A stretch of DNA of 63,853 nucleotides, the filler included, from Licmophora abbreviata (taxonomy: Eukaryota), in the NCBI GenBank assembly GCA_900291995.1. It is 14 parts of 14 records of this genome, joined end to end, with 100 filler letters (N's around TTAATTAATTAA, not from the genome) between each part and the next. Parts side by side here need not be neighbours in the genome. Positions count along the whole stretch, not along the records: positions 7,607 to 9,227 come from OLMU01001113.1; positions 9,328 to 13,571 come from OLMU01001114.1; 12 more parts are not named here. One strand, given 5' to 3'. Shown piece by piece: positions 51 to 25,408 of this stretch (its first letter is position 1; each line of letters starts with the position of its first letter). The position numbers and the translations under genes are program-made. Under the pieces are notes generated by a model, which was not told the origin of the DNA, ran no database searches, and was given only the letters and a program-made list of their open reading frames with translations.

Positions 51-1823
51 ATGGCCCGATCCTCTTCAAGACAGTCTGATAAGGATGCACGCCTTGCCCG
101 CCTGACCGCCGGGCTACGGCCGGTGTTCCTGTATATCTTCGGCTTGTCCGGGATCATCAACATCCTGGCACTGACCGGCGCGTTCTACATGATGCAGATC
201 TACGACCGCGCCCTGATGAGTGGCAGCATCCCGACGCTCGCCCTGATCTCGGCGCTGGCACTTGGTCTCTACATGTTTCAGGGCGGGCTTGATGTCATCC
301 GCTCGCAGATCCTTCACCGGGTCGGCGCGCGCTTCGATGCCCGCGTTGCCCCCGATATCCACCGCATGAGCATCGACATGCCGCGCTATGGCTTTTCCGT
401 CGCCGAAGCGATGGAGAGGGGCCGCACCGTCGACACCCTGCGCAACTTCTTCGGCGGACCGGCGCTTGTGTCGCTGTTCGATCTGCCCTGGATGCCGATC
501 TTTCTGGCCTTCGTGTTCGTGCTGCATCCCTATCTGGGCGCTCTGGCCATCGGCGGTGCCGTGGTCCTGACGCTGATGACCGTCCTGACCGAGCTGATGA
601 CCCGCAAGGCGAACGCCCAGGTCAGCCGCGCCGCCGTTCAGCGCAGCTCGGTGGCCGAGGCCAATGCCCGCAACGCGGATGTCATCAAGGCGATGGGGTT
701 CTCGTCGCAGGCTCTGGCCCAGTTCCAGCAGGCCAACGACGCGCACCTGACCCTGCAATCCGGTTCCAGCGACGTGACCCGCACCGTGGGCGCCTTGTCC
801 AAGGTGTTGCGCATGATGCTGCAATCGGCGGTTCTGGGCCTTGGCGCCTATCTCACCATCATGGGCGAGATGACCGCTGGCGCGATCATCGCCGCCTCCG
901 TCGCCTCCGCCCGCGCCCTTGCGCCGATCGACTCGACCATCGCCAATTGGAAGAACCTGATCGCGGCCCGCAACGCCATGGCCACCATCCGTCAGACAAT
1001 GGCCGCCCTGCCTGAACAGGCGCGCCCCCTCCAGATGCCCGATCCCAAGCAGTCGTTCTCGGCCGAAGGGATCACCGTTGTGGCCCCCGGATCCGGGCGT
1101 GTGCTCCTGTCGGATGTGACCATTCAGCTCGAAGCCGGGCAGGCGCTTGGCCTGATCGGTCCCAGTGGCGGCGGTAAATCTTCGCTGATGCGGGCGATGG
1201 CCGGGGTCTGGCCGGTGCTGCGCGGCCATGTCCGCATGGATGGCGCCGATCTTGTGCAATGGGGCGAAGACACGATTTCGCGCAGCTTCGGTTATCTGCC
1301 GCAGGACTACACTCTGTTCGATACCACGATTGCCCGCAACATTTCGCGCCTTGCCGATCCTGATCCCGAAAAGGTCATCGCGGCGGCACGTGCGGCTGGC
1401 GTTCACGAGATGATCCTCGCCATGCCCGACGGCTACGAGACCGAACTGGGCGCCAGTGCCACAAGCCTGTCGGGCGGTCAGCGTCAGCGTATCGCTCTGG
1501 CACGGGCGCTTTATGGCGATCCCTTCGTCGTCCTGCTGGACGAGCCGAATTCGAACCTCGACGCCGAAGGCGAACGCGCCGTCAGCCATGCGATCCAAAG
1601 CATCCGTGATCGCGGCGGCATCGTGATCGTCGTCGCTCACCGCCCAAGTGCTCTGGAGCATGTCGATCTGGTCGGTGTTGTCCAGGATGGCGCCCTCAGC
1701 CGCTTTGGCCCCAAATCCGAGATCATGCGCGTCAAGGCGGCCCCGGTGCCCCCGGCCACGCCCCTCCGTGAAGCAGGCGCCGCCATGAAGGCCGCTCCGG
1801 CACCAGAGGACACAGGCACATGA
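51..1823 (+). CDS. prtD: Type I secretion system ABC transporter (PrtD/AprD family permease-ATPase)
   Basis: N-terminal TM domain with 'YMMQIYDRALMSGSIPTL' and 'LFDLPWMP'; Walker A GPSGGGKS, signature LSGGQRQR, Walker B LLDEPNSNLD; RBS AAGGAG upstream. Confidence 0.93.
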   Translation: MARSSSRQSDKDARLARLTAGLRPVFLYIFGLSGIINILALTGAFYMMQIYDRALMSGSIPTLALISALALGLYMFQGGLDVIRSQILHRVGARFDARVAPDIHRMSIDMPRYGFSVAEAMERGRTVDTLRNFFGGPALVSLFDLPWMPIFLAFVFVLHPYLGALAIGGAVVLTLMTVLTELMTRKANAQVSRAAVQRSSVAEANARNADVIKAMGFSSQALAQFQQANDAHLTLQSGSSDVTRTVGALSKVLRMMLQSAVLGLGAYLTIMGEMTAGAIIAASVASARALAPIDSTIANWKNLIAARNAMATIRQTMAALPEQARPLQMPDPKQSFSAEGITVVAPGSGRVLLSDVTIQLEAGQALGLIGPSGGGKSSLMRAMAGVWPVLRGHVRMDGADLVQWGEDTISRSFGYLPQDYTLFDTTIARNISRLADPDPEKVIAAARAAGVHEMILAMPDGYETELGASATSLSGGQRQRIALARALYGDPFVVLLDEPNSNLDAEGERAVSHAIQSIRDRGGIVIVVAHRPSALEHVDLVGVVQDGALSRFGPKSEIMRVKAAPVPPATPLREAGAAMKAAPAPEDTGT

Positions 1824-2500
1824 TCGAGGTAAAATCAGCCAAGAAGGTCCAGACGCCCGGCAAAGAGCGTCTGGCCGCGATGGACGGCTTGCGCCAGACG
1901 GTGACAGCCATCCCCAAGCGCAAGATCGGTATGGCGATGATGGCCCTTTTCGGTCTGGTCGCCTACATCAAGACCTTGCTCGGCGGCTCCGAGGTTGCAG
2001 CGCAAGCCGCCCCTGACGCACCCATCGCGGGTGACGACGGTGCCGCGCCCATCTGCGAGACGGACAATTCGTCGGCAGACAACAGCGGTCGCATGTCCTA
2101 CGGCAACGCCGCGCTGTTCCAGGCCNNNNNNNNNNNNNNNNNNNNNNNNNNNNNNNNNNNNNNNNNNNNTTAATTAATTAANNNNNNNNNNNNNNNNNNN
2201 NNNNNNNNNNNNNNNNNNNNNNNNNATATCCATCTTGCGCTGTCCGATCTGCACGCGGTGACCGACACGCGCGACATCCGCAAGGACAGCTCGGATTTCG
2301 AGGCCCGGATCTCGGTCTTTGATCCCGAAACCGTGGCCGAAACCCATGGCCGCCCCGGGTTCCGTCAGGATGATGAAGACGCCCTGATGATCCGCCGCAT
2401 CGAACTTCGCCAGGAAAACGAAACCGGCGAAATCGAATTCGACCTCTGGATCAGCGGTCCCGACCGCGAGTCCGATCCCTCTCAAGACTTCACTTCCTGA
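1820..2500 (+). CDS. Hypothetical T1SS-operon protein, split by assembly gap (N-term 1820-2125 with a hydrophobic helix; acidic C-term 2228-2500)
   Basis: ATGA overlap with prtD stop. The frame is open into the gap. After the gap a frame is open from 2228 (IHLALSDLHAVTD...) to TGA 2500, 14 nt before hlyD. That both parts are one gene is inferred. Confidence 0.55.
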
Positions 2501-2514
2501 ACAGGAGCCACACC

Positions 2515-3843
2515 ATGATACGCAACAGCAAAACCCCCAACGCACCGCAGGATGCCGTCTATGCCATTCGCGGGCGGGTGATCGCCGGCCTGGTGATGGC
2601 AACCCTTCTGGTCGCTGCGATCTTTGGCTGGGCGGCGAATGCCAACCTTGCCAGCGCGGTGGTCGTCAGCGGCGAAGTGTCGGTCAACCGCGATCTGCGG
2701 GTCGTCCAGCACCGCGACGGCGGCATCGTCAAAGAGATTCCCGCCAATGTTGGTGACTATGTGCGCGAGGGTGACATCCTGCTCCGGCTTGATGACACAT
2801 CTGCCCGCACCGAACGCGCGATCCTGCACGGCAAAATCGCCGAGCTGGCCATTCGCAAAAGCCGTCTCGAAGCGCAGCGCGACCTGATGGCGGAATTCCA
2901 TATGCCCGCCGGTCTTGATGAATTGATCGTGACGCCCGCGGCACTGCAGGCCATCTATGTCGGCGAGCGCCGCATTTTCCAGGGCAACATCTCGTCCTTC
3001 GTCAGCCGCAAGGAACAGATCGACCTCGGAATCGAACAGGTCCGCACCGAAATCGATGGCCTCGAAGCCCGCCTTGACGCCAAGCAGGACGAAATCCTGC
3101 TGGTGCAGGCCGAAAGCGCCCGCGTCGAAGACCTCTCCGAGCGTCGCCTGACCGTGCGCAATGTCGCCTTCTCGATCGAGCGCGAGAATGTCCGCCTGCG
3201 CGGCGAACGCGGCGAGATCCTATCGGCACTGGGCCGCGCCCGCAGCCGCGTCAGCGAGCTGGAGTTGGAAATCCTCTCGATGCAGGAAACACTGCGCACC
3301 GATGCGCAGCGCGAACTGCGCGAGATCGAAACCCAGCTGTCGGAACTCACCGAAAAGCGTTTCGTCATCGAAGACACCCTGTCGCGCACCGAAATCCGCG
3401 CGCCGATCTCGGGTCTCATCAATGATCTGAACGTCAATTCGGTGGGCGGCGTCATCAGCCCTGCCGAAATTCTGGCGACCATCGTCCCCGAAGAGGCTGA
3501 ACTGGTCTTCACGGCCCGTGTCCCGGCGGTGCAGATCGAACAGGTTAACGCCGGATATGCCGCCCGGATGCGCTTTGTCGCCTTCGACCAGAACGAAACC
3601 CCCGAAATCGAAGGCACCGTGTCCTACGTGGCCGCCGCCGCGACAAGCGATCCCAAGATGCCGGGCGACTTCTACTCGATCAAGGTCGATGTGACGCCCG
3701 ATCAGCTGGCCCGCCTCGGCGGCAAGGAGCTGCGCCCCGGCATGCCGGTCGAAGTCTATGTCACCACGGCCGAACGCACCGCCCTGTCCTATCTCGTCAA
3801 GCCCTTCAGCGATCAGTTCGCGCGGGCCTTCAAGGAAAGGTAA
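2515..3843 (+). CDS. prtE: HlyD-family type I secretion membrane fusion protein (PrtE/AprE)
   Basis: N-terminal TM, 'VVQHRDGGIVKEI', long coiled coil, 'IRAPISG', 'LRPGMPVEVYVTTAERTALSYLVKP'; RBS CAGGAG. Confidence 0.93.
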   Translation: MIRNSKTPNAPQDAVYAIRGRVIAGLVMATLLVAAIFGWAANANLASAVVVSGEVSVNRDLRVVQHRDGGIVKEIPANVGDYVREGDILLRLDDTSARTERAILHGKIAELAIRKSRLEAQRDLMAEFHMPAGLDELIVTPAALQAIYVGERRIFQGNISSFVSRKEQIDLGIEQVRTEIDGLEARLDAKQDEILLVQAESARVEDLSERRLTVRNVAFSIERENVRLRGERGEILSALGRARSRVSELELEILSMQETLRTDAQRELREIETQLSELTEKRFVIEDTLSRTEIRAPISGLINDLNVNSVGGVISPAEILATIVPEEAELVFTARVPAVQIEQVNAGYAARMRFVAFDQNETPEIEGTVSYVAAAATSDPKMPGDFYSIKVDVTPDQLARLGGKELRPGMPVEVYVTTAERTALSYLVKPFSDQFARAFKER

Positions 3844-4325: not shown

Positions 4326-6419
4326 ATGGGACGTGACAAACGCAAGGATCGCGATCGCGATACTGAAGACAAATACAAGGGCGAGTTCGAGATCAGGTTC
4401 ACCCAAGACGGGGAGACGCGCAGTCTCACCCTGAAAGGTAGTCCTGCCGACTACGACATTGACTTCGACGATGACGAGCTCGAGATCGAGGCCCGCAAGG
4501 GCGATGCCGAATGGGAATTCGAAGATATCGACAGCTTCGAAATCCTGTCCGCCGCCACGGATGAGGCCTCGTCAGCCCCCGACGGAACCTTCGCCCTCGC
4601 CGGTCCTCTGCGTGACTATGATTTCTTCCTTGAAGACGGGTCTCTGGTTGTCCGCAGCCGCATCGACGGCGAGGTCGAGACCCTTGAAAACGCCACCACG
4701 ATCACCGCTGGCGGCGAGACCTTCCAAACGGCCTTTCTCGTCGACATGCTCGAAACGCCCGGCCCGGATATCCTGGCCGAAGGCGGGCCGCGGCTGATGA
4801 CGGTCAACACACCCGACCCAACCCCAAGTGTGCTGTGGGACCAGATCCTGCAATCTGTCATCGTCGAAACTGGCGGCGGCCCAACCAATGCGGCGCGTGC
4901 CTTCTCGATCATGCACACCGCCATCTATGACGCACAGGCCAGTTATGACCCTGTCGCACAGCGCTTAGCGATCGACCTCGAAGGGGACAACCTCGATATC
5001 GCCAGCCTTGCCGATGCCTCCGGCGCCGAGATTGAAGCCGCCATGCATGTCGCGGCATATCAGACCCTCTCGCAACTCTTTCCCGGCCACCGCGACACGT
5101 TCGACAAGGTGCTGTCCGAACGCGTGGGGATCGACGTTTCGGATGATAGCCGCGCGCATGTGGTCGGCATTGATGCGGCACAGGACGTGCTGACCCCGCG
5201 TCTGGCCGAAGCGGCCGTGCTGGCCAATCTGTCCGACGGGCTTTACACACCGGTCAACCCCGGCCCCGACACACGAAACGACATCTCGCGCTGGACCCCT
5301 GAAAAGCAGGGCAAATTCTCGCCCACTCCAGACGCCCTGCAGACATTCCTGACCCCGGAACGCAGCCTTGCCGAAGGCTTCGCGCTACCCGAAACACCCC
5401 TTGGCTTGACCGACACCGCCCTGATCCGGCCCGATGGACCCGAGCCGTTCTTCACCGCCGATCAGCAGAACGCCGTCCTCGATTTCGACACCGGCACGAT
5501 CACCCTCGCCGCGCCGGTGAACGTCAACGGGCAGACGTGGCAGGCCGGCGATACGATCCCTGTGGACAAATCCCTGATCGGTCCGGTCATCAACCCGACC
5601 TTCATCTCTCAGGCCGAAGCCATCGTTCACACCAGCGCGACCCTGACCGAAGACCAGAAACTGATCGCTGAATTCTGGGAGGACGGCCCCGGCAGCAGCT
5701 ATCCGCCCGGTGCCTGGATGACGCTGGCGCAATATGTCTCTCAACGCGATGCTCATGACGCGGCCTCGGATGCCCTGCTGTTCATGACCATGGGCAACGC
5801 CATGAACGACGCGGCCATCGCGACATGGGACGCCAAGGTGCATTTCGACTATGCCCGCCCGGTCACCGTGATCCGCGACCTTGGCAAGCTCGGCCTGATC
5901 GGCGAACAGGGCGTCGACGAGCTGACCGGTGAGACCGGATATGTGATCCAGGCCTTCGGCGGCATCGACCCCGACACCGGCACCAGTCTCGGCACCCGCA
6001 CGATCCTTGCCGAAAACTTCATCACCTACCAGCTGCCCGGCGGGGAACAATCTCCGCCCTTCGCGGAATATACCTCGGGTCACAGCACGTTCTCGGGCGC
6101 CGGTTCTGCGGTGCTTGCCGCCTTCACCGGCTCCGATCACTTTGACGCGCAAGTCACGGTTGCCTCAGGCACCAGTGCCTTCGATGCCGCGCTGCCGACC
6201 CAGACATACCTCTTCGAATGGGACACGTTCTCGCAGGCCGCCAACGACGCTGGCTTCTCGCGGATCTATGGCGGGATTCACTTCAGCGACGGTAATCTCG
6301 ACGGGCTCGGCTCCGGTGCCAAGATCGGCTCGGATGCCTATGACCTTGCCTCCGAGTTCGCCAACGGCACAGCGCAGCCCGAACAGCAGCCCTTCTTCGA
6401 CGAATTTCTGTTCGGATGA
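4326..6419 (+). CDS. Vanadium-dependent haloperoxidase (PAP2 superfamily) with acidic N-terminal extension
   Basis: Three vanadate-site motifs: KVHFDYARP (Kx6RP), PPFAEYTSGHS, SRIYGGIHFSDG; also bacterial VHPO-type 'GPTNAARAFSIMHTAIYDA' and 'AEFWEDGPG'; no signal peptide. Confidence 0.88.
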   Translation: MGRDKRKDRDRDTEDKYKGEFEIRFTQDGETRSLTLKGSPADYDIDFDDDELEIEARKGDAEWEFEDIDSFEILSAATDEASSAPDGTFALAGPLRDYDFFLEDGSLVVRSRIDGEVETLENATTITAGGETFQTAFLVDMLETPGPDILAEGGPRLMTVNTPDPTPSVLWDQILQSVIVETGGGPTNAARAFSIMHTAIYDAQASYDPVAQRLAIDLEGDNLDIASLADASGAEIEAAMHVAAYQTLSQLFPGHRDTFDKVLSERVGIDVSDDSRAHVVGIDAAQDVLTPRLAEAAVLANLSDGLYTPVNPGPDTRNDISRWTPEKQGKFSPTPDALQTFLTPERSLAEGFALPETPLGLTDTALIRPDGPEPFFTADQQNAVLDFDTGTITLAAPVNVNGQTWQAGDTIPVDKSLIGPVINPTFISQAEAIVHTSATLTEDQKLIAEFWEDGPGSSYPPGAWMTLAQYVSQRDAHDAASDALLFMTMGNAMNDAAIATWDAKVHFDYARPVTVIRDLGKLGLIGEQGVDELTGETGYVIQAFGGIDPDTGTSLGTRTILAENFITYQLPGGEQSPPFAEYTSGHSTFSGAGSAVLAAFTGSDHFDAQVTVASGTSAFDAALPTQTYLFEWDTFSQAANDAGFSRIYGGIHFSDGNLDGLGSGAKIGSDAYDLASEFANGTAQPEQQPFFDEFLFG

Positions 6420-6442: not shown

Positions 6443-7327
6443 TCAGGCGAAAGCATTCTGGTCCGGTCGCCCGATCGGCATCCACAGCACTTGCGTGCGA
6501 TCCGCATCCAGGCGGTAATCGCACTGCGCGCGCGCGGCCATATGCTCCAGGATGTCGCGGGCCAGTCTCATCCGTTCGAACGGGCCGGTTGCGGCGCAGG
6601 TCGCATCCGCATCAGCGGTCTTTTCGCCCGCCTGAGCAACCGTCACCCATACCCCGGTCTGCCCGCGCCTGCCTTGCCCATGGCCAAACGTCACACGGGT
6701 TGTCTGTCCCTGGTCTGACATGCGGGCGATTTCCAGCATCGAGAACAACAATTGCATCAGCGTTTCGCTCTCCACTGCACTCAGCTCAACGGGCTGCCCG
6801 TCATGGCCGATATCAAGCCGTTGGCCGCAGGTTGTGAACATGAACCCAAAGCGCCGCCCTGCCTCTTCGGCACAGCCCGCAAGATCCGATGTCCCCGCCG
6901 CCGACAGCTTTGCGCCCGCCTCGAGCGTGCTGAAGGCCACCACGCGGTCCACTCGCAATTGCATCCAGTGCAACGCATCCTGTCGCATCCCATCCAGACT
7001 TTCATGCAGCAGCGGATCATCCCGCGACGCCATGGCAATACCCTGCAAGGCATTCAGCGGATTCCTCAGATCGTCGCTCACCATGTCCAGAAATCGCAGT
7101 TTGATTGCGTTCGACCGTTGCAGCGGCCGGATCAGCAGCCAATAGAACACAGGCGCCATGATGCAGAACAGCAGCACTGCATCCAGTATCGCCTCGCCCC
7201 ATATTGTCTCTGTCAGCCAGGGCATCCGCTGCTCGAGCCTGGCCAAGGCCAGCATGATGCCCAATTCCGCGCCCGCCAGAGTGATCAGGACAATCACGAC
7301 CTTCCCAAGCGAGTCATCGCGAAACAT
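6443..7327 (-). CDS. Membrane-bound histidine-kinase-like protein lacking the phospho-His (pseudokinase)
   Basis: Two TM helices, then 'KLRFLDMVSDDLRNPLNAL' (H-box SH[DE]LRxPL with His as Asp); downstream HATPase-like region lacks recognisable N and G boxes. The ORF could extend to 7360. Confidence 0.7.
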   Translation of the reverse strand: MFRDDSLGKVVIVLITLAGAELGIMLALARLEQRMPWLTETIWGEAILDAVLLFCIMAPVFYWLLIRPLQRSNAIKLRFLDMVSDDLRNPLNALQGIAMASRDDPLLHESLDGMRQDALHWMQLRVDRVVAFSTLEAGAKLSAAGTSDLAGCAEEAGRRFGFMFTTCGQRLDIGHDGQPVELSAVESETLMQLLFSMLEIARMSDQGQTTRVTFGHGQGRRGQTGVWVTVAQAGEKTADADATCAATGPFERMRLARDILEHMAARAQCDYRLDADRTQVLWMPIGRPDQNAFA

Positions 7328-7731
7328 GGTCAGACCCTGCCGACCGGGCAAACCATGCAAGCGGCGCGCGCCATGTGCGCTGTCCGCTCGACGCAGGCAT
7401 CAGCCAGGATCGGCGGCATTGCGAAGGCACATCTGTCATGCATGGGTATCAAGGCCCCTGTGCGATGGTGTCGTCAGCACATCTGTTTCGTTCAGACAGC
7501 CACCATNNNNNNNNNNNNNNNNNNNNNNNNNNNNNNNNNNNNNNNNNNNNTTAATTAATTAANNNNNNNNNNNNNNNNNNNNNNNNNNNNNNNNNNNNNN
7601 NNNNNNCAAGGCCCCTGTGCGATGGTGTCGTCAGCACATCTGTTTCGTTCAGACAGCCACCATGCTGCGAATCGAACACACCGGACTTCGGGGATATCAC
7701 AAAGCGCCCCAACCGCCGCTACCCCGGACTA

Positions 7732-8139: not shown

Positions 8140-8772
8140 ATGTATAGAACGATGGTGATTTGCGATCACGCCTCTACGCGTGCCGGTTTCGAACATTTGA
8201 TATCTTCCTGCGAGTCCTTTGACTTGCAATGTGCGACTGCCTTCACACCCGAAATTCTCGACACATGCGCCCGCGACAAGGTCGACGTGGTGATTGTGGA
8301 TCTCGGATCGTTGGATCAGCCGATGAAAACCCTGCGCGCGTTCCGCAAATCAAGCGAGACCATGCGCATCTTGGCTTACTGCTCGGAAAAAGGCATCGAC
8401 ACAGCGGTCGAAGCCTTGGATGCGGGGGCATCCGGCATCCTGACCTACACAAGCGAACTAACCGATCTGTGCATGGCAGTGCGTCGCGTCATGAATGGCG
8501 ATAACTACGTGCAGCCCGATATGGCGATGGATATCTTCGCCAAGCTGCGTCAGGCCGAAGCCAAGCGCAAAGAGGCCGAGCGCCTGCGCCTGACCGCCCG
8601 CGAAAGCCAGGTGGTCCGCCATCTGATGCAGGGCATGACCAACGGTCAGATCTCGGTCGAGCTCAACATCAGCGAGAAAACCGTCAAGCACTATGTCGGC
8701 TCTCTCAAGGACAAGTTCGGTGCAGCCAACCGCCTCGAGGTGGTTCTGGAAGCGCAGCGTCTCGGGGTCTGA
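8140..8772 (+). CDS. NarL/LuxR-family response regulator with atypical receiver domain
   Basis: C-terminal LuxR HTH 'LTARESQVVRHLMQGMTNGQISVELNISEKTVKHY'; receiver fold keeps 'VVIVDL' Asp but has VICDH, LAYC and GASGILTY at the acidic-pair, Thr/Ser and Lys positions. Confidence 0.9.
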   Translation: MYRTMVICDHASTRAGFEHLISSCESFDLQCATAFTPEILDTCARDKVDVVIVDLGSLDQPMKTLRAFRKSSETMRILAYCSEKGIDTAVEALDAGASGILTYTSELTDLCMAVRRVMNGDNYVQPDMAMDIFAKLRQAEAKRKEAERLRLTARESQVVRHLMQGMTNGQISVELNISEKTVKHYVGSLKDKFGAANRLEVVLEAQRLGV

Positions 8773-9015
8773 CCCCGGTTTCGGGGGTGGCCGCCCGGCG
8801 CCCCCGGCCCTGAATGGTCTGGTCATGGTTCCCTAAAACCCGGCCATTCAGCGGCGCGTTCGTAATGGCGTCTCAGGCATTCGCGAACGCGCCGCACCCC
8901 TCTATCCCAAAGCCATATGCTCCGGCTCTCCGGTTTCCCGGCCCTGACGCTCCGCGGCTCAGGGTCGTTTGCCGTTGCGCGCCCCGATGGTCCGCATGGT
9001 CGTCAGTCATAGTGC

Positions 9016-9062
9016 GGACCTTGCCTTGGACCTTGGTATGAGTTTCGCTTGGACCTTCTCAT
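9016..9062. promoter_or_regulatory. GGACCTT repeats / operator boxes upstream of hemA
   Basis: GGACCTT at 9016, 9028 and 9051; full box GGACCTTGGTAT 9028-9039. Confidence 0.5.
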
Positions 9063-9137
9063 CTGTGGTCCGGCCCGCATCGCCGTTAGCGTCCCTGCAC
9101 AACAATCGATCAGTACGCATCTTGCAGGAAGGCCGGC

Positions 9138-10520
9138 ATGACACAGACCCAGACACCCCCCCGCTCGGAATGCTCCGGTTGCCTCGGCTGCCAGCGTGGC
9201 CGCGATCTCTATCTCGATGCGGCCCTTNNNNNNNNNNNNNNNNNNNNNNNNNNNNNNNNNNNNNNNNNNNNTTAATTAATTAANNNNNNNNNNNNNNNNN
9301 NNNNNNNNNNNNNNNNNNNNNNNNNNNGATCGTCTGCATCAGGAAGGCCGCTATCGGACCTTCATCGACATCGAACGCCGCAATGGCCAGTTTCCGCATG
9401 CCACATGGCGCCGCCCTGATGGCACCGAGCAGCCGATCACCGTCTGGTGCGGCAACGACTATCTGGGCATGGGCCAGCACCCCGAGGTCCTGGCGGCGAT
9501 GCACGAGGCGCTGGATGCCACCGGCGCGGGCTCGGGCGGCACGCGCAACATTTCCGGCACCACGGTCTATCACAAGCGGCTCGAGGCAGAGCTGGCCGAT
9601 CTGCACGGCAAGGAAGCGGCGCTGCTGTTCACCTCGGCCTACATCGCGAATGACGCGACATTGAGCACGCTGCCCAAATTGTTCCCCGGCCTGATCATCT
9701 ATTCGGATGCGCTCAACCATGCCTCGATGATCGAGGGGGTGCGCCGCAATGGCGGGGCCAAGCGCATTTTCCGCCATAACGACATGGCGCATCTGCGCGA
9801 GCTGCTCGAGGCCGACGATCCCGCCGCGCCCAAGCTCATCGCCTTCGAATCGGTCTACTCGATGGATGGCGATTTCGGACCGATCGAGGCGATCTGCGAC
9901 CTGGCCGACGAGTTTGGCGCGCTGACCTATATCGACGAGGTGCACGCGGTGGGCATGTATGGCCCGCGCGGCGCTGGCGTGGCCGAGCGCGACCGCCTGA
10001 TGCACCGCATCGACATCATCAACGGCACGCTCGCCAAGGCCTATGGCGTGATGGGCGGCTATATCGCGGCGAGCGCGAAAATGTGTGACGCCGTGCGCAG
10101 TTACGCGCCGGGCTTCATCTTCACCACCTCGCTGCCGCCCGCGGTGGCCGCAGGGGCCGCGGCCAGTGTTGCGCATCTCAAGCGCGACGGGTCGCTGCGC
10201 GAGGCGCATCAGACGCAGGCGAAGATCCTCAAGACCCGGCTCAAGGGCATGGGCCTGCCGCTGATCGACCACGGCAGCCATATCGTGCCGGTGATCGTGG
10301 GCGATCCGGTGCATACCAAGAAGCTGAGCGACATGCTGCTCGAGGGCTATGGCATCTATGTCCAGCCGATCAACTTCCCGACCGTTCCACGCGTGGCACC
10401 GAGCGCCTGCGCTTCACCCCCTCGCCGGTTCACGGACCGCGCGAAATGGATGCACTCGTGCACGCCATGGACGCCCTCTGGAGCCATTGCGCGCTCAACC
10501 GGATCGACCTCGCCGGCTGA
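9138..10520 (+). CDS. hemA: 5-aminolevulinate synthase; spans an apparently zero-length gap; 2-nt frameshift near 10390
   Basis: ATG 9138 after CAGGAAGG gives [30 protein letters not shown], which joins [17 protein letters not shown] at 9328. Motifs: [50 protein letters not shown] (PLP Lys). The canonical C-terminus ([13 protein letters not shown]...[14 protein letters not shown]) is in a shifted frame ending at TGA 10520. Confidence 0.92.
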
Positions 10521-10551
10521 CAGCCGCCACAACAAGAAAGGAGCCTGACCG

Positions 10552-11777
10552 ATGCGCTGGATCACGCGAGGCGCTGTTGTCGCCACCGTCGCCATTCTGT
10601 GTCCCTTGGGAATTTCACAGCTGACCGCGACGGAAATGGCCGATCCCATCGAAGACCGCGTCCCTGTCGCGGCCTCGGTGCGGCGCGCGGATTCGCTGCG
10701 CATCGACGACGTGCTGCATGCCTTCGGGCATGTCGCGCCTGCGGATATCATCCGCGTGTCGATGCCGCGCCATGCGGCCCCGGTGACGGAAATCCTCGTG
10801 AACGAAGGCGATATGGTCGACGCCGGACAGATCCTCGTCCGCATCGACCGCACCGATATCCAACGCGATCTTCTGCAGGCTCAGGCCACGCTTTCGGCCA
10901 CCCGCGCCGATATCCGCATCGCCCGGTCCAGCCTGCAGGTCGCCGCCACCGATATCGCGCAGCGCCGCGCCGAACTCGACCGGCTCGAACGTCTTGCCAA
11001 AACCGGCGCCTCCTCCGAGGTGCAGCGGCAGGACGCCACCCGCGCGCTGCAACAGGCGATGTCCGAACACGAGGCCGCCAAGGCCCGTCTCGCCGGTGCG
11101 CAGGCCAGCGAGGCCCTCGCCCTGCTCGCATTGGACCGCGTCACCACGTTGAACAGCCAACTGGATGTCCGCGCGCCGGTCGCAGGCCGCGTGACCCGGA
11201 TCATGGTCGATCCCGGTGCAACGCCTGTCATCGGCAGCCCGGTCCTCGATCTCGCCGCCGCCGACCGCATGGAAGCGGTGCTCACCGTGCCCCCCCAGCG
11301 CTTGCCCGCGTGTCCCCGGGCACTCCGGCGCGGCTCTGGACGCCCGATGGCGCGATGATCGCCGCCGATGTCACCCGGATCAGCCCCTCGACTGGCCCCG
11401 ATACCGGTCTCGCGCGGGTCGCGGTGCGCTTGCCCGACGGGCACGCCCATCTTGCAGGCTCCAGCCTGCGCGCCGAAATCATCGTCGATCAGCGGGTTGC
11501 GATCGTCGTGCCCACATCCGCCCTCGTGGCGCTCGATAGTGGCCCCGGCCTCTTTCGCGTCGTCGATCAGCGCGCCGTCGCAACCCCGGTTGACCTGTCG
11601 ATGCGCCCCGGCGGCGCCGAAGCCGAGATCGTCGCGGGCCTGTCCGAAGGCGCGGTCTATGTCGCCGTCGCCTCGCCCCTCCTGCGGGATGGCGAACGCG
11701 TGGCGCGTCGCAGCGGTCCGACCGACACCGGCCTCAAGCAGACAGCGGCGTTGCATCTCGGGCTGGCCCGGCGATGA
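10552..11777 (+). CDS. RND efflux periplasmic adaptor (MFP); frameshift near 11290-11310
   Basis: Lipoyl/hairpin pattern 'VTEILVNEGDMVDAGQILVRID...VRAPVAGRV'; continues in another frame with 'IVVPTSALV...EIVAGLSEG...LRDGERV' to TGA overlapping the next ATG. Confidence 0.8.
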
Positions 11778-14700
11778 CCCTCACGGAACGCATCCTGCGC
11801 CACGCGTTCCTGCCGGTGATCGTCATCGTCGTGCTGGCGCTTCTGGGCCTGCGCGCGGGGCTGACCCTACCGCTGACCCATTTGCCCGATATCGGTGACA
11901 ACCGGATCGTGCTGCGCCTGTCGGCGCCCGATGCCTCGCTTGCTGCCACCGACCACGATCTGGCCCAGCCTGTCTACCGCGCCTTGTCATCCCTGCCGGA
12001 CGTCACTTCGATCCGGTCACAAATCACCTCTGGCCAGCTGGTCATGACCCTCAGCCTGCGCAATTCCCGCACCGCCGAGGACAGTCTCGCAAAGGTGCAG
12101 GACCGGCTTCAGGCGCTCAAACCCGATCTGGATCTCGCGATCTCCATCGACGAGATCCGCGCCACCTCCTCGCGGCGTCAGGCGGCGCTGGAGCTGGCCA
12201 TTCTGCCCCGCGACGGCGATATCGTCGCCGCCAGCGATGCGACGCGCGACGTCATCCTGCCCGCCTTGCGCCAGATCGACACCATCGCCGAGATCGACAC
12301 CCAAGGCGCCACCCGCGCCGAACTGGTGATCCGGACATCCGACCCTCGGCTGGCCTCCGTCGGGCTGACCTTTGCGGCGTTGAACCGCCAGATCACGCAG
12401 GCGCTCTCGCAACAGGTGGCCGCAGCCGTGCCGGTATCCTCCGCTCCGGAGGCAGGGACCATTCTGCTTTCACTCCCGCAGGACATGCTGGCCGCAGAGG
12501 CGGCGCAGACACTCTCCACCCTGTCGCTGACCACCGCCTCGGGCCAGAAGATCCCGCTGGCGGCTGTGGCGCGTGTGTCGACTGCGCCTGCCCCGAGTGA
12601 GTGGCTGACCCGGCACAATGGAACCCCCGCGATCCTCGCACAGATCCATGCCGCGACCGGCGCCGACCTCGTGACGCTCAGCCGGGATCTGGACCGTGTT
12701 CTGAGCGATCTCCGGCACAGCCGCCCCGATCTCACGCTCGACGTTGTCGCGCGCCCGGCCAAGCAGGCGATCCGTTCGCTCGGCGCCACCCGGCAGGCCC
12801 TTCTGGAAGGCTGCCTGCTGGTCATCGCGGTGATCGCGCTTGCGCTGAAATCCTGGCGCGCCACGGCCCTGGCCGCGTTGGCGATTCCGCTCTCTGTTCT
12901 GCCCACGCTCTATGTGATGCAGGTGCTTGGCCTCAGCCTGAACATCGTCAGCTTGCTGGCCTTGACCCTAGCGTCGGGAATCGTCGTGGACGATGCGATC
13001 GTCGAGATCGAAAATATTCACACCCATCAGCGCCGCAGCCGCGACCCCCGCAAGGCCGTGGCGCGCGCGGTCGATGAAATGGCCCGCCCGGTCATCGCCA
13101 CAAGCCTTGCCCTTCTGGCGGTGTTCCTGCCCGTTGCGACCATGCCCGGCGAGGCCGGTCTCTATTTTCAGGCTTTCGGCTATACGCTGTGCATCGCGAC
13201 GGTGTTTTCCCTGCTGGTCTCGCGGCTTGTGATCCCGGGCCTTGCCCTGCGCTTCGCGGGCAGCCCCGTGGCCCTTCCCGCGGCACCTTCGGCCCGGCGA
13301 CTGGCCCGGCGCTACCGTGCGGTGGTCATCCGCGCGCTGCGCTTTCGGTGGCTCTGTCTGGCAGGGGCCGGGCTTGTGGCGGGGCTCTCGGTGGTCGCGG
13401 CGCTCAATCATCCCGGCGCGTTCATCCCTCTGGATCGCGATCCGCTCCTGCAGTTCGACATGGCGCTGCCGCCGACGATGCCCCCCGAGGCGCGTCTGGA
13501 CCATCTGGCAGCACTTGAACGCGATCTTTTGGCCGATGAGGGCGTGCGCGGCCTGACGGTGATCGCCTCCGNNNNNNNNNNNNNNNNNNNNNNNNNNNNN
13601 NNNNNNNNNNNNNNNTTAATTAATTAANNNNNNNNNNNNNNNNNNNNNNNNNNNNNNNNNNNNNNNNNNNNGTCTTCTGTTGCGCACCGACGGCGCGACC
13701 CGAACCGAGGCGCGGTTGCATGATGCGCTCAACCAGACCGCCGATGCGCGCCTGCTCCCACTCACCAGCACCGGGCGTGCGGCACTCGTGCTCGATCTGG
13801 CGGCCCCTGACCTCCACAGTCTTGAAATCGCAGCACCCGCGATCCTTGCCGCCATCGCGCAACTGCCCGGGGATATCCCGATCCTCTCCCCCATGTCCGC
13901 AAGACAGGCGCAGGTGCGTTTCCTGCCCGACCAAGGCCTCCTGCGGCAGCTCGACCTCAGCACGGCGGATCTTGTCGCGTCCCTTCAAGGACATACAAAC
14001 CCCGACAATCACCTGATTGCCATGATCGAAAGCGATGACCGACAGCCGCTCCGCCTGCGCAGTCGGCTGACACCCTCCGGTCTGGACGGCAATGCGCCAG
14101 GTGACCTGACCTTCGCACCCGTGCCCTTGCCCGGTGGCGGCACCGTGCCGCTCGCAGCACTTGGCCGCTTCGATCTGGACTTCGCGCCTCTGCGGCTCGA
14201 ACGGCGTGATGGTCTCTATGTCCTGCCGCTTCTGGCCGCGCCGGACACGGCCGCAACGGCGCGCCGTGTCTCCGATGTCGCCAAGTCTGAGGTGGCCCGG
14301 CTGTCCGCTGATCTGCCCGGTCTTGCCCTTCTGCCCGCCGGCGACACCACCTCGCGGCTCGAGATGATGTCCGACCTTGGCCGCGCCTTGGGCAGCATGC
14401 TCTTGCTGCTTGTCGCGGTGCTCTACGCGCTCTTCCGTTCGGTGGCGCAGGTCGGGGTGATTCTCGTCTCGCTGGTCTTTGCGTTGAGTGGCGGGATGCT
14501 GGTCCTGTCGCTCACCGGCCTGCCGGTGTCCCTGCCGGTGCTGATCGGTCTGATCCTGCTGCTCGGCATCGTCGCCAAGAACGCGATTCTTCTGATCGAC
14601 CGTGCGCAAACCCTGGTCGCGCGGCATGGCAATATGGCGCAGGCGGTGATCGCTGCCGCCTCGGACCGTGCGCGCCCGATCATCATGACCAGCGTTGCGA

Positions 14701-14912
14701 TGATTGCCGGGATGCTGCCTGCGGCCCTTCCGTGGCTTGAGGGCTCGGCCTTCCGTCAACCGCTGGCGCTGACCGTGATCGGTGGCGTCGCGGTCTCGAC
14801 CCTGCTCAGCCTCGTGGTCACGCCGGTCCTGTGCCTGATGGCCCATACTGCGGCATCCCGCATCGCCCGCCGCATCGCGCCGCGCGCTGCCACACCCGTT
14901 CCCCAGACCTGA
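11774..14912 (+). CDS. RND efflux permease (AcrB/AcrD/AcrF family), split by gap 13572-13671
   Basis: 'AIPLSVLPT', 'LNIVSLLALTLASGIVVDDAIVEIENI', 'GIVAKNAILLID', 'RARPIIMTS', 'PLALTVIGG'; proton-relay DD, K and T retained. Confidence 0.88.
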
Positions 14913-14996
14913 TACAGCCTCGCGCCGCGACCAATGCCGCCCCGACCGGCGGTATGTGGGGCCGATTCTCTGATGCCTGCACCCTCCCGGCCTATC

Positions 14997-15053
14997 GGAC
15001 CTTGGTCTGATACGAGCGCTACCTTCGTAGGGTTTTTCACAAGACCTTCAGCG
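14997..15053. promoter_or_regulatory. Operator boxes upstream of the giant peroxidase gene
   Basis: GGACCTTGGTCT 14997-15008, CTACCTTCGTAG 15019-15030, half-site AGACCTTC at 15042. Confidence 0.5.
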
Positions 15054-15150: not shown

Positions 15151-18100
15151 ATGGTTTTCGTCAACACAAACGACCTGAAGCACATCCTCGACCAGATCCG
15201 CATCGCTGAACAGCATGTGGCCGGTACACCCTTGACCGATCTGGTGGCGAATCCCCTGCTGCCCTACGGCCTGCGTCTGGTCGATGGCACGTTGAACAAC
15301 CTGACCGAAGGCCGCGAGGACTGGGGCTCGGCGGATCAGGTCATGCCGCGCCTGCTCCAGTCAACCTTCCTCACCCAACCCGAGTCGGCGCATCTGGCAG
15401 ATGCCAGCCCGCGCGCCCCGCAAGACGGACCCACGTCCTATCTTCAGACCTCCGGGTCGGTCTATGATGCCGAGCCTCGGGTGATTTCGAACCTGATTGC
15501 CGATCAGACCCTCGCCAACCCCGCCGTCATCGCCGCAGCGCTCAGCCATTCCGGTCTGACCGGTCAGGCGATGCTTTCGGCTGCCAACGAAATCGTTCAG
15601 GCTTATCAGCGCGTCATCGATGCGCAGGCCGCCACCGGCAATGTCGATCAGGCGCTTGAACTGCAGCGCCAGCAACTGCAGTCCGCTCTGGACACCGCCA
15701 GCGCCGAACTGACCGCCGCACAGAACGATGTCTCCGCCAAGACAACGGCCAAGGCTGACGCCGATCTGGCCGTGACCGACGCCAAGGCCGCTTTGGATAC
15801 GGCCGCCGCGACAATGGTTGCCCTGCAAAGCGCCGGTCAGGTGGGCGAGGCTCAGGCCGCGCTGACAGCCNNNNNNNNNNNNNNNNNNNNNNNNNNNNNN
15901 NNNNNNNNNNNNNNTTAATTAATTAANNNNNNNNNNNNNNNNNNNNNNNNNNNNNNNNNNNNNNNNNNNNAACGCCCTCGATGCCGCGCAGGCCGAGCTG
16001 GACGCCGCCAACGCATCCGCCGCCTCGATGCTGACCATGCACGGCGCCAAGCAGACCGAAGTCACCAACCTGCAAAGCCAGAAGGCGACCGCCGATCAGG
16101 CGCTTGCCTCGGCTCAGTCCACCCTGTCCGACGCTGAGGCGGCACTGGCACTGGAAACCGACGCCGCAGGCGCGGTGACTGAGGCTCAAACGGCGGTTGA
16201 TAACGCCACCACCGCAGTCAGCGAAGCGCAAGCGCGTGTGGACGACCTCGACGCACAGCTCGAGCAGGCGCAGACTGACCTCGACGATCTGACCACCCAG
16301 CTTCAGACCGCGCAGCAGGCCGAGACCGCCGCACAAGCCCGCGTCAACGCCGCTCAGGAAGCCGCCGCTGAAACCCAGATCGCCCGCGACAACGCCCAGT
16401 CCCTCTTCGACACCGAAGTGACCGAGCTTGCCACCGCGCAGGCCGATATGCTCAGCGCCCTCTCGACCTATCTCAATGGCGGATCGCTGGCCGACTTCTC
16501 CGTCGCGTCCGCGGCCTATTCCAAGGCCCGCGAGGAAAAGCTGGCCGCAGAAATGGCTCTCGCTGACGCGATCGACGCGGATGATGGCGCCGATCAGACG
16601 GTTCTGACCGAAAATGCCGCCCTCTCCACGGCGAAGTCTCAGGTCACTAGCCTGACTCAGCAGCGTGATACTGCGATCACCACGCGTGATGGGCTGAACA
16701 CCCAGCTGGGCGAAGCCAACACCGCCCTGTCCACGGCGCAAGCCACCCTCGAAACCGCCCAGCAGGATCTTCAGACCGCACAGGCGGACAATCAGGCTTA
16801 CGTCGATGCGCAGAACGCCGTCACGCAGGCGCAGGACGGCGTCAACACGGCACAAGGCGTGGTCGATGGTTTTGTGACCCAGCTCGCCACCGTCAACGCC
16901 GAGCTTGCAACGCTGAACACCAATGTTGAAAACGCCGATGCCGAAGTCACCCGCCTCGAAGGCGTCGTTCAGACCGAAACCGGCGATCTGACCATCGCGC
17001 AAGATGGCGTCGACTCGGCCCAGCAAACACTGGCAGCAGCCCAGACGGCCGATGCGCAGATCCTCGCGCAGCTCGATGTGATCGCCGATGCAACCCTCAC
17101 GCTCAACCAGGCGACTGAAACTGCCGCTCAGGCAGCCCTCGATCTGACCGCGGCAGAAGGTGTTGAAGCTGCCAAGCAGACCGCGGTCGACACCGCCACA
17201 AGCGACCTCGACGCCCTGACCGCACCCGGCGCGGCCGAAGCCGCTCTGGCCGCCGCTCAGGCCACCGCTGCCGAGGCGCAAACCGCCCTCGACACGCTGC
17301 TGACCACCCATGACATCACCATGGACGGCAACAACGTGCTGCTGCCGGATGTGTCTCCTGATGAAGGCCTGACCGCGCCCTACAACTCCTGGATGACCCT
17401 CTTCGGTCAGTTCTTCGATCACGGCCTCGATCTGGTCGGCAAAGGGGGCAGCGGCACCGTCTACATCCCGCTGCAGCCCGATGACCCGCTCTATGTCGAA
17501 GGCTCGCCCACCAACTTCATGGTGCTGACCCGCGCCACCAACCAGCCCGGACCGGATGGCATTCTGGGCACGGACGATGACGTGCGCGAGCATTTCAACA
17601 AGACGACACCTTGGGTCGACCAGAACCAGACCTACACCTCGCACCCCTCGCATCAGGTGTTCCTGCGCGAATACGATCTCGACGCCAACGGAAACCCGGT
17701 CTCCAACGGCTACCTGCTGCATGGCCAGACCGGCGGCATGTCCACATGGGGCGACGTCAAGGCGCAGGCCGCGACCAAGCTGGGCATTCAGCTCAATGAT
17801 AGCGACGTGCTCGATGGCCCGCTGCTGGCCACCGATCCCTACGGCAACTTCATCCCCGGCCCCAACGGCCTGCCGCAGCTGGTCGTGCCGAACCCCGCCT
17901 ATGTCGAAGGCGGCACCGAGCCTTTGAATATCCTGATCGAAGGCGATCTGGCCAACCCCGTCGATGCAAGCCAGGCGCTTCGTAACGGTCACGCCTTCCT
18001 CGAAGACATTGCCCATAACGCGTTCCCCAAGGGCATGATCGACCACGATCGCAACCCGATGACACCCGAAATCGAGGTCGCGCCCGATGCCGATACCGAC

Positions 18101-24100: not shown

Positions 24101-25408
24101 CACGAGCAGCTCGACCGCCTGCAGGAAGGCGACCGGTTCTACTACACCGACCGGATCGGCGATCTGCCCGTCTACAACAACTTCATCTCCAACCTCACCT
24201 TCGGGGATATCGTGACCCGCAACACCGGGATGACCGATCTGCCGCTGGATGTGTTCAGCTATAACGGAGATCAGGCGGTTGAAGACAATGCACCCAACAC
24301 CAACCAGACCAACACCGATCCGGTGACCACCAACCAGACCAACACCGATCCGGTGACCACCAACCAGGAGACCATCGACACGACCAACACCGGTCAGACA
24401 CCGGAAACCGAACCGACGACAACACAGGAGACCGCAACCCAGACGACCGAGGATAACAGCGCCCAACAGCCTCAGGGCGGCGCGTCCAACGAGACCGAAA
24501 CCGAAACCAACGAGGATATGTCCCAGGGCACCGACACCACGCTCGAAAACCAGGAATCCGAAGTCGAAACCGAGACACCGGCTTCGGACCCCTCGGCCGG
24601 GCAGAGCCCCTACGGCCCGGTCGAGGGTATCGTAGAAAGCGGTACCGAAATGGGCGATGCCCTTGTCGGCGCGGCGGGTGACGATGTCCTCAGCGGGTAT
24701 GACGGCAACGACATGCTCGTGGGCAATGCCGGTGACGACATGCTCTTCGGTGGCGATGGCCGCGACGACATGCTCGGTGGCGAAGGCAATGACATGCTCG
24801 TGGGCGGCGCCGGCAGCGACAATATCCTTGGCGGCGACGGCGATGACGTGATCATCGGCGGGTCCGGCTCGGATATCCTGATGGGCAATGCCGGTGACGA
24901 CACCTTCATCGGCACGGACGGCGACTGCAACGACCTCATCTACGGTGGCGAAGGGTCCGACACGATCGACATGGCGTCGGTCACGTCCAACCTCACGGTG
25001 CGCCTCGGCAATGCCGGGACGGATCGTGGCTCGATCACCACGGCAGAGGGCGGTCGCGACACGATCTGGAGCATCGAGAACTTCGTCGGTGGCGCAGGCG
25101 ACGACACCATCTTCGCCAGCGACGCGGCCAACGTGCTCGATGGCGGTGACGGCAACGACACCTTCGTGTTCGAAACCGCGGCCAGCGCGGAGGGCGATCA
25201 CATCAACGGCCTCTCCGCTGGCGATGTCCTGCAGTTCGGCACAGGGGCGGGTGCGGTCACGATCTCCTCGCGGGATCAGGCCATCGACGCCGGCTTCGCG
25301 GTCGAGCATGACGCCGCCAACGACGTCTCGACGATCAGTGGCAGCCTCGACGACGACAGCTTCGAACTGACCGTCAGCGGCCGCTTCGACTACGAAAACC
25401 TCGCCTGA
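15151..25408 (+). CDS. Giant RTX protein with two animal-type (peroxidase-cyclooxygenase) heme peroxidase domains, MopA/PepA-like; >=3,385 aa, split by gap 15871-15970
   Basis: RBS CAGGAG; family N-terminus 'DLKHILDQIRIAEQH...LPYGLRLVDGTLNNL'. Domain 1: GQFFDHG (17405), GDGRGNE, RFGHS, NIARGR. Domain 2: GQYFDHG (22577), GDGRANE, RFGHS, NVARGR. Several GGxGxD nonapeptide blocks; no signal peptide. Confidence 0.92.
24298..24367 (+). repeat. 30-bp perfect tandem repeat (about 2.3 copies) in a Thr/Asn/Gln/Glu-rich linker
   Basis: CAACCAGACCAACACCGATCCGGTGACCAC x2 plus partial copy, encoding TNQTNTDPVT. Confidence 0.95.

Follow-up and report, generated by a model that had tools for sequence, protein, structure and literature searches.

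What does a cysteine-rich reading frame that runs into a contig end have to do with the 5-aminolevulinate synthase (ALAS) gene on the next contig? The question is raised by a 63,853-nucleotide stretch of DNA, here called the window, which joins 14 contigs of GenBank assembly GCA_900291995.1 (deposited as Licmophora abbreviata). In alphaproteobacteria and mitochondria, ALAS catalyses the committed and rate-limiting step of tetrapyrrole synthesis. A first-pass annotation of the window had proposed that the two pieces join with nothing between them, so that the enzyme gains an N-terminal tail with three closely spaced cysteines. We find that the product of the ATG at position 9138 is a second, hemA-type ALAS with ~19-22 extra N-terminal residues. 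In the alignments described below, the extension ends in an invariant C-x-G-C-x-G-C-[QH]-R-G and the normal N-terminal helix follows directly. We call this gene ext-hemA and the ordinary copy canonical hemA.

An extended hemA reading frame across a zero-length gap

The ATG at 9138 opens 30 codons on the plus strand (9138-9227), of which the first 22 specify the extension and codons 23-30 the start of the normal N-terminal helix. A Shine-Dalgarno-like AGGAAGG (9126-9132) lies 5 nt upstream of this ATG, and GCAGGAAGGCC(G/A)GCATG is kept in four of five aligned loci, the fifth reading GCAGCGAGGCCAGCATG. The codons for C12-S-G-C15-L-G-C18, the C-x-G-C-x-G-C motif, occupy 9171-9191 on the plus strand. 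The next contig (9328-13571) opens in frame with DRLHQEGRY... and then runs on as ALAS; this remainder of ext-hemA (9328-10520, plus strand) ends at a TGA stop at 10518-10520 once the frame is corrected as described below. The start codon with its ribosome-binding site, the 30-residue reading and the opening of the next contig had all been called exactly as they stand in the window. The start ATG is conserved among the orthologues, and the stretch from it to the helix contains no in-frame ATG, GTG or TTG; G001 and G283 have a further in-frame ATG upstream, which is absent from the window and is not conserved. When the orthologue is aligned with the Rhodobacter capsulatus enzyme (PDB 2BWN), its residue 24 stands opposite residue 5 of the chain, which gives an extension of ~19 residues, close to the figure of about 20 first suggested.

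The 13 linkers of the window are identical artificial inserts, N44-TTAATTAATTAA-N44, and hold no length information. As reference for the junction we used Roseovarius litoreus DSM 28249 (G001), the nearest genome, which is 92-96% identical in this region. On its contig C12, window positions 8700-9227 align up to base 97690 and positions 9328-9464 from base 97691. The junction is also continuous in G242, G283, G298 and G344 and in metagenome contigs. The linker at 9228-9327 thus has a real length of 0, as had been supposed: the sequence reads straight through in R. litoreus and in five other Roseovarius genomes, uninterrupted and in frame, with no ATG start or frame change hidden at the join. 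The run of seven Cs at 9156-9162, which had been flagged as a possible miscall, reads identically in G001 and G283, and relatives in which it is missing are still in frame. The contig order of the window is collinear with G001 C12 and then C17, and a 14.7-kb contig (L084, AGTU) of a metagenome-assembled genome (MAG) is collinear with the window through a vanadium haloperoxidase-related gene, a kinase, a regulator, ext-hemA, an adaptor and a resistance-nodulation-division (RND) pump.

The contig break at 9227/9328 arises because it is the left edge of a two-copy hemA repeat. In G001, the 5′ end of the second hemA lies at the end of contig C7, where the gene has a GTG start and an ordinary N-terminus, with GAAGGAGG and a TTGATccagGTCAA box upstream. 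The two G001 copies turn identical exactly at GATCGTCTGCAT (D-R-L-H), and their collapsed body forms a separate 1031-bp contig, C30, with C12 and C7 as 5′ flanks and C17 and C5 as 3′ flanks. For the DNA of the window itself, Logan contigs of four public runs containing this DNA, which may derive from the same strain, were compared with 9328-10700. Run X3 has a 1166-bp unitig that spans 9328-10495 at a depth of 36.6 and without a mismatch; two unitigs adjoin its left end (depths 16.9 and 17.3) and two its right end (depths 18.4 and 18.7), and the alternative right flank encodes ...NRAEMAG*, the C-terminus of the canonical copy. With two-fold depth and two flanks on each side, 9328-10495 is therefore an exact two-copy repeat common to both hemA paralogues, a gene-conversion tract that measures 1166 bp without two spurious bases in the record. 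Short-read contigs of the strain cannot phase the 5′ and 3′ flanks, and their pairing here follows the order in contig 9328-13571, in G001 C17 and in the single contig L084.

The two spurious bases lie at about 10386-10393 and put the last ~45 codons of hemA out of frame. They are missing at full depth from the contigs of all four public runs (which show 0-1 other differences) and from all relatives. This frameshift is an error of the record, and the ext-hemA frame is intact in the genome. Intact full-length orthologues are present in G242, G344 and G298.

In the strain of the window the canonical hemA body is base-identical to that of ext-hemA. In G344 the two paralogues are merely 62-98% identical per 60-nt window, and in a tree of enzyme bodies the extended copies are not monophyletic, those of G242 and G344 falling apart from that of G298. 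From this divergence and branching we conclude that the paralogues are old and have been repeatedly homogenised by gene conversion, with the 5′ region and the last few codons alone staying distinct. The two enzymes accordingly differ in essence in the 5′ region of their genes, the tail and the last few residues alone. Gene conversion between hemA paralogues explains a recurrent assembly break in Roseovarius genomes, and the frameshift of the record is corrected with it.

By profile scores and active-site residues the product of ext-hemA is an equivalog-level 5-aminolevulinate synthase, an alpha-oxoamine synthase of pyridoxal phosphate (PLP) fold type I. The intact orthologue of G242 (P0003, 426 residues) scores 662.2 bits against TIGR01821, whose cut-off is 338.55, with residues 25-421 on profile positions 6-401 of 402, and stays far under the BioF and Kbl models' own cut-offs. 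It matches R. capsulatus ALAS (2BWN) over residues 24-418 (E 3e-214), and Aminotran_1_2 is its sole Pfam content. In an alignment of 61 sequences, K267, D233-G239, G96-G107 and P384-P394 are mostly invariant, the rest being conserved in at least 90%, and the residues are the same as in 2BWN; the window's body has the same active-site residues up to the spurious frameshift. The TLAKAYG motif, DEVHAVG and the glycine-rich loop are invariant in the 61 sequences, a likeness to the canonical alphaproteobacterial HemA of R. capsulatus; we take their roles, including that of the PLP-binding lysine of TLAKAYG, to be those of the R. capsulatus structure. What sets the extended enzyme apart from canonical HemA is the ~19 additional N-terminal residues with C-x-G-C-x-G-C.

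A third ALAS paralogue, 55% identical to P0003 and scoring 637 bits against TIGR01821, is encoded in G242 (C49), G298 (C199), G344 (C12), G262 (C14) and G001 (C3), so that these five genomes have three ALAS genes; it may be a hemT-like form. Rhodobacterales such as R. sphaeroides have HemA/HemT isoenzyme pairs, sorted into hemA-like and hemT-like groups (PMC5553392). The genomes studied here resemble those pairs in having several separately regulated ALAS paralogues in one genome. They differ in that ext-hemA is of the hemA-like form and undergoes gene conversion with canonical hemA, and in that no Cys-rich tail appears in the available part of the account (PMC5553392).

Conservation and distribution of the three-cysteine tail

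Eight distinct versions of the extension were compared (the window, G001, G283, L121, G262, G298, G242 and G344). The three Cys, the two Gly, Arg20 and Gly21 are unchanged in all eight, while every Cys codon is seen both as TGC and as TGT. When the sequences are compared in 28 pairs, codons C12-D23 differ synonymously 94 times and non-synonymously 46 times, whereas for the ten codons before the first Cys, which evolve freely, the counts are 26 and 152. For example, the tail reads MTQTQFPSRAT-CSGCHGC-QRGTD in G298, MSQQKIISRPS-CSGCLGC-HRGRD in G242 and MSQQQIISRPS-CSGCLGC-HRGRD in G344. Orthologues found independently of the motif (G001, G242, G262 with CYGCLGC and G298 with CSGCHGC) keep all three Cys with varying x positions; on the conservation of the cysteines, then, the prediction held also where the motif had played no part in finding the gene. 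Given this substitution pattern, the conserved ATG and the lack of any other in-frame start, we conclude from the comparison of codons that the three-cysteine tail is translated and under purifying selection as protein.

The distribution of the extension was followed in two surveys. In survey 1, a 75-residue G001 query was run against 201 genomes, one for each of 201 genera of the family, and 51 Roseovarius genomes. Two of the 59 hemA loci inspected had the extension (G001 and G242), none of 11 further loci of this survey with a match reaching upstream had it, and none was found in the 200 other genera sampled. Survey 2 used the DNA of 8990-9227, without presupposing the motif, against 147 Roseovarius species genomes. 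Strong matches came from six of the 147 (G001, G283, G262, G298, G242 and G344); ten weak matches of 22-32 nt were left out of the count, and the remaining 131 genomes gave no match. A motif pattern run on the species-genome collection returned four loci, all Roseovarius, and a looser pattern returned five metagenome contigs; such loci are circular with regard to the motif and served solely as extra copies. Among the best 150 of 23,382 ALAS matches (50%-identity representatives), no N-terminal CxxCxxC occurred, the single flagged row (P0108) being a fragment with a junk start. The earlier statement that typical bacterial HemA lacks the extension is borne out in both samples, the 200 other genera and these 150 representatives. 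On these surveys, the extended gene is restricted to a small clade of Roseovarius.

In public annotation the long form is already listed simply as "5-aminolevulinate synthase". For example, the 426-residue P0155 has the same tail and is named by its source as Roseobacter sp. AzwK-3b, a close relative; the enzyme of this strain has the accession WP_007811312.1. Full-text literature searches returned no published account of a Cys-rich N-terminus on a bacterial ALAS.

Two kinds of candidate were set aside. The hemA of G162, from another genus, has an extension of ~14 residues (MTNVNRPPRSHNHAF...) with a superficial likeness in PPRS; it has the upstream neighbour of canonical hemA and no cysteines, and is not an orthologue. 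This gene (L126 6843-6945, in the canonical neighbourhood) starts MTNVNRPPRSHNHAFGYDAAFEGALDALH, an extension of ~14 residues that bears histidines, contains no Cys and offers no alternative start. Upstream open frames such as MPPCRASSDCQEGIR, which precede GTG-DYTAKLD in G209, G219 and G246, are untranslated leader that happens to be in frame and are no extension.

The upstream region and the peroxidase island

About 80-110 nt upstream of the ATG lies a direct repeat, TTGGACCTT-N14-TTGGACCTT, at 9026-9057 on the plus strand (copies at 9026-9034 and 9049-9057; 23-nt period). The block is kept in all five aligned loci while the flanking intergenic DNA diverges, and it occurs exactly once per genome in five of five genomes, always at ext-hemA, where a reversed control gave 0 matches. 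The window holds two exact copies of TTGGACCTT in all and, with at most one mismatch, 13 against 8.2 +/- 2.9 expected. From its conservation and uniqueness, the repeat is a putative operator or promoter element of ext-hemA. Between 8700 and 9227, Rfam gave nothing beyond a 17-bit chance match, and scans for sigma-70 promoters and terminators gave 0 sites. A half-site with one mismatch, TCGGACCTT, lies at 14995-15003 between the genes for the RND pump and the peroxidase, where the window's count of such matches is within chance.

Canonical hemA of G001 differs in this respect: it has the FNR-like TTGATccagGTCAA box upstream, where ext-hemA has its unique direct repeat instead, and its neighbours are others. 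On L006 (G001 C7), at ~1310-1325, TTGATCCAGGTCAA stands upstream of canonical hemA, and ext-hemA has no such box. By the FNR consensus, TTGATCCAGGTCAA / TTGATccagGTCAA is an FNR-type box. With such a box at canonical hemA and none at ext-hemA, the two paralogues are therefore probably under different control.

Between these elements and the genes further upstream lies a diverged NarL/LuxR-type response regulator (8140-8772, plus strand; Pfam GerE 63 bits, Response_reg 30.6 bits against a cut-off of 30.2), which stays far under the cut-offs of all NCBIfam equivalogs. Orthologues of this regulator (81-97% identity) are present in exactly the six of 147 Roseovarius genomes that have ext-hemA; the next best match is 47% identical and others are at most 34%. 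In a plasmid collection, regulator matches were weak and confined to Ensifer and Rhizobium, with no sign of the locus on a known plasmid. On the minus strand at 6443-7360, a membrane HisKA-domain protein has the H-box SDDLRNPL, which lacks the histidine, and gives no HATPase match; it is probably a degenerate sensor kinase. Phosphotransfer to the regulator is doubtful because its presumed partner lacks the H-box histidine, and by these features the pair may be a degenerate two-component system, perhaps without phosphotransfer signalling. Between these two genes, window positions 7450-7506 and 7607-7663 are contig ends that overlap by ~57 bases (both correspond to G001 L069 9071-9127), an overlap that the linker hides.

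Further upstream, type I secretion genes at 51-3843 encode a PrtD-type ATP-binding cassette (ABC) protein (51-1823, plus strand) and an HlyD adaptor (2515-3843, plus strand). G001 has a protein with repeats-in-toxin (RTX) repeats between them, which is missing here at a contig break. At the linker 2125/2226, ~1.29 kb of G001 (L069 2558-3846) is absent, within a gene for an RTX calcium-binding repeat protein of 622 residues. A vanadium haloperoxidase-related protein of 697 residues follows (4326-6419, plus strand), with VCPO_2nd and DUF6851 domains, no NCBIfam model match, and synteny with G001 and the AGTU contig L084.

Downstream, an RND membrane-fusion (adaptor) protein (10552-11777, plus strand) starts 31 nt beyond the stop codon of hemA. 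The record breaks its gene into two overlapping frames (10552-11358 and 10599-11777), probably through a further sequencing error of the draft; in G001 it is a single open reading frame (ORF) of 408 residues, with 129.5 bits against TIGR01730. The RND permease (11774-14912, plus strand) is split by the linker 13572-13671 and in G001 is an ORF of 1019 residues (ACR_tran, 452 bits). At 15151-25408 on the plus strand, a giant RTX animal haem peroxidase, split by the linker 15871-15970, has PF03098 at 412.9 bits in six stretches and RTX repeats at 156.9 bits; in G001 C17 it is a single open frame of 3424 residues, and G283 C106 has it at the corresponding position. The giant peroxidase is of the MopA/animal haem peroxidase kind linked to superoxide production and Mn(II) oxidation. 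The placement of ext-hemA in a peroxidase locus, which the first-pass annotation had wished to see examined, is thus confirmed in the window, where the vanadium haloperoxidase-related gene stands two genes upstream and the giant RTX peroxidase ~4.6 kb downstream. PF03098 is present in 35 of 147 Roseovarius genomes, and giant peroxidase forms occur in three of those with ext-hemA (G001, G283 and G262).

Candidate functions of the cysteine tail

We favour a reading in which ext-hemA would be a separately regulated supply of 5-aminolevulinate (ALA) for the haem demand of the island. The tail would be a self-contained module on an enzyme body interchangeable with the canonical copy, because with a body that can be swapped in this way the tail cannot depend on co-adapted residues there. 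Its three thiolates, held in tight C-x-G-C turns, would ligate a metal ion or an iron-sulfur (Fe-S) cluster, and a fourth ligand could be the conserved Asp/Glu23, or be given by the second subunit of the dimer or by something outside the protein. The activity or stability of the enzyme would then respond to iron, to oxygen, or to superoxide and peroxide as handled by the peroxidase next to it. Loops of 4Fe-4S ferredoxins have the spacing C-x-G-C-x-x-C. In an AlphaFold2 model of P0003 made from the 61-sequence alignment (mean predicted local distance difference test, pLDDT, 72.9), residues 1-20 fall below 50 and are unstructured, and the helix begins at residue 23; this predicted disorder would be expected of a metal-dependent fold. 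That the tail thiolates ligate a metal or Fe-S cluster and thereby couple ALA supply to iron, oxygen or reactive-oxygen status is a tentative proposal from the residue pattern, to which we give somewhat less than an even chance.

Several observations weigh against metal ligation and its tie to the peroxidase. There are three Cys alone and no conserved fourth Cys-Pro or His, a His being present at varying positions in three of the eight versions. The 4Fe-4S ferredoxin motif CxxCxxCxxxCP is absent: the invariant CxxCxxC is followed by [QH]-R-G-[RTS]-[DE], with no fourth Cys or Pro. The tail was matched by no Pfam or NCBIfam model, phmmer with the 30-residue tail against PDB sequences gave 0 matches at E up to 10, and the best score for residues 1-32 in an ESM Atlas search was 0.84, where values below 0.9 are noise. 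L084, L086 and all five metagenome contigs were found by a pattern that requires the motif, and are no evidence of its conservation. Some 11 Roseovarius genomes that lack ext-hemA likewise encode giant haem peroxidases; seven of them have a regulator of 32-34% identity no more than ~5 kb away from the peroxidase domains, and in G236, the one inspected in detail, this regulator adjoins the giant peroxidase gene, which is followed by a type I secretion ABC gene. Conversely, three genomes with ext-hemA, each a MAG (G242, G344 and G298), yielded no haem peroxidase. The link between the two is therefore positional and not obligatory, and from this distribution ext-hemA and the RND pump seem to have been added, in this clade, to a peroxidase island of wider occurrence.

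Other explanations of the tail have to be set beside this one. We give next to no credence to the extension being an artefact or not being made, whether through a wrong join, a homopolymer miscall, a downstream start or decay into a pseudogene. The record does have a frameshift near 10388-10393 and is a low-quality draft with 13 linkers, but six other genomes and metagenome contigs are in frame across the junction, the run of seven Cs recurs unchanged in two further assemblies, the conserved helix is preceded by no in-frame ATG, GTG or TTG downstream of the start, the synonymous versus non-synonymous pattern is that of coding constraint, and the frameshift is missing in all four public runs, with intact ORFs in G242, G344 and G298. 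This explanation is already contradicted. A metal-free thiol switch, in which CxxC disulfides or oxidation under peroxide, superoxide or hypohalite would alter ALAS activity, oligomer state or turnover, is rather unlikely in our view, even with two overlapping CxxC units that are invariant and with neighbours that produce or handle oxidants (the vanadium haloperoxidase-related protein and the animal haem peroxidase). A relative with the tail, AzwK-3b (P0155), secretes a haem peroxidase that makes superoxide (PMC6414704, PMC6328764). One CxxC would be enough for a switch, however, and three Cys, two invariant Gly and the invariant Arg-Gly suggest a defined ligand geometry; in addition, the tail is predicted to be free and disordered, so that a route from it to the active site is hard to see. 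It is quite unlikely, too, that the tail is a recognition tag, either a docking peptide for a protease adaptor, the kinase/regulator pair or a haem-delivery or secretion component, or a conditional degron. Such a tag would agree with a self-contained module on an interchangeable body, with the strict co-occurrence of a clade-specific regulator and with a terminus predicted to be disordered, and N-terminal degrons control glutamyl-tRNA reductase (GluTR), the first enzyme of the other ALA pathway, in Salmonella. A C-x-G-C-x-G-C core with freely varying x residues would nevertheless be unusual for peptide recognition, and the partner is purely hypothetical.

We regard it as very improbable that the tail binds haem through a Cys thiolate as a second feedback site, a possibility drawn by analogy with eukaryotic ALAS. 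In its favour, ALAS is a classic target of haem feedback, and Cys-ligated regulatory haem sites without Cys-Pro exist (PMC6154995). Against it, a single thiolate would be enough for haem, which leaves three invariant Cys unexplained. The parallel with eukaryotic haem-regulatory motifs that had been suggested fails on sequence: those motifs are Cys-Pro motifs (PMC6154995), as in RCPF and RCPV of the eukaryote-like representative P0139, whereas Cys-Pro is found in residues 1-30 of none of the eight versions. The tail does resemble the presequence motifs of ALAS1 and ALAS2 in being N-terminal, Cys-based and outside the ALAS catalytic core, but it lacks Cys-Pro, a bacterium offers no import function, and its spacing and invariant glycines point to a multi-thiolate site. 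Furthermore, alphaproteobacterial ALAS already has a haem-feedback site, His340/Cys398 in Caulobacter crescentus (PMC6154995). C417 (in the C-terminal WSHCALN) and H345/H348 of P0003 are invariant in 61 of 61 aligned sequences and are candidate counterparts of the Caulobacter ligands. A probable equivalent of the Caulobacter-type C-terminal Cys is present in all copies here, and such a site would concern both paralogues, not the tail. The likeness to Caulobacter ALAS lies in post-translational control through a Cys ligand in a flexible terminal segment (PMC6154995), a ligand role being a proposal in the case of the ext-HemA tail; the difference is that the Caulobacter site is C-terminal, consists of one Cys and one His and binds haem, whereas the tail is N-terminal with three Cys.

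Returning to metal or Fe-S ligation by the tail, a bolder form of it holds that an Fe-S cluster or redox-active metal, possibly bridging subunits, would let this ALAS isoenzyme sense iron, oxygen or superoxide directly; we consider this form unlikely. By analogy, FNR, when compared with CRP, and SoxR (with its CxxCxC cluster) carry a short Cys-rich segment added to an ordinary protein, and here too such an addition would carry an Fe-S cluster as a reporter of oxygen or superoxide. FNR and SoxR differ in being transcription factors with four identified ligands, whereas ext-HemA is an enzyme with three conserved Cys, and its cluster is hypothetical. If the bolder form were true, the supply of haem precursor would be turned up or down through the enzyme protein itself, in concert with the giant secreted haem peroxidase encoded beside it; among the ALAS enzymes of all organisms this would be the first to have an Fe-S or redox sensor built in, and it would provide a missing regulatory link in the superoxide and manganese chemistry of the Roseobacter group.

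Control of ALAS at the protein level is known so far as haem binding, through the C-terminal His/Cys of the Caulobacter enzyme and the Cys-Pro motifs of animal presequences. The tail has a setting of its own, beside a giant secreted haem peroxidase and in a clade that includes the Mn(II)-oxidising, superoxide-producing AzwK-3b, whose secreted animal haem peroxidase makes extracellular superoxide and oxidises Mn(II) (PMC6414704, PMC6328764). Control of the ALAS step by an autonomous three-Cys module at the N-terminus of a dedicated paralogue would be of a new kind.

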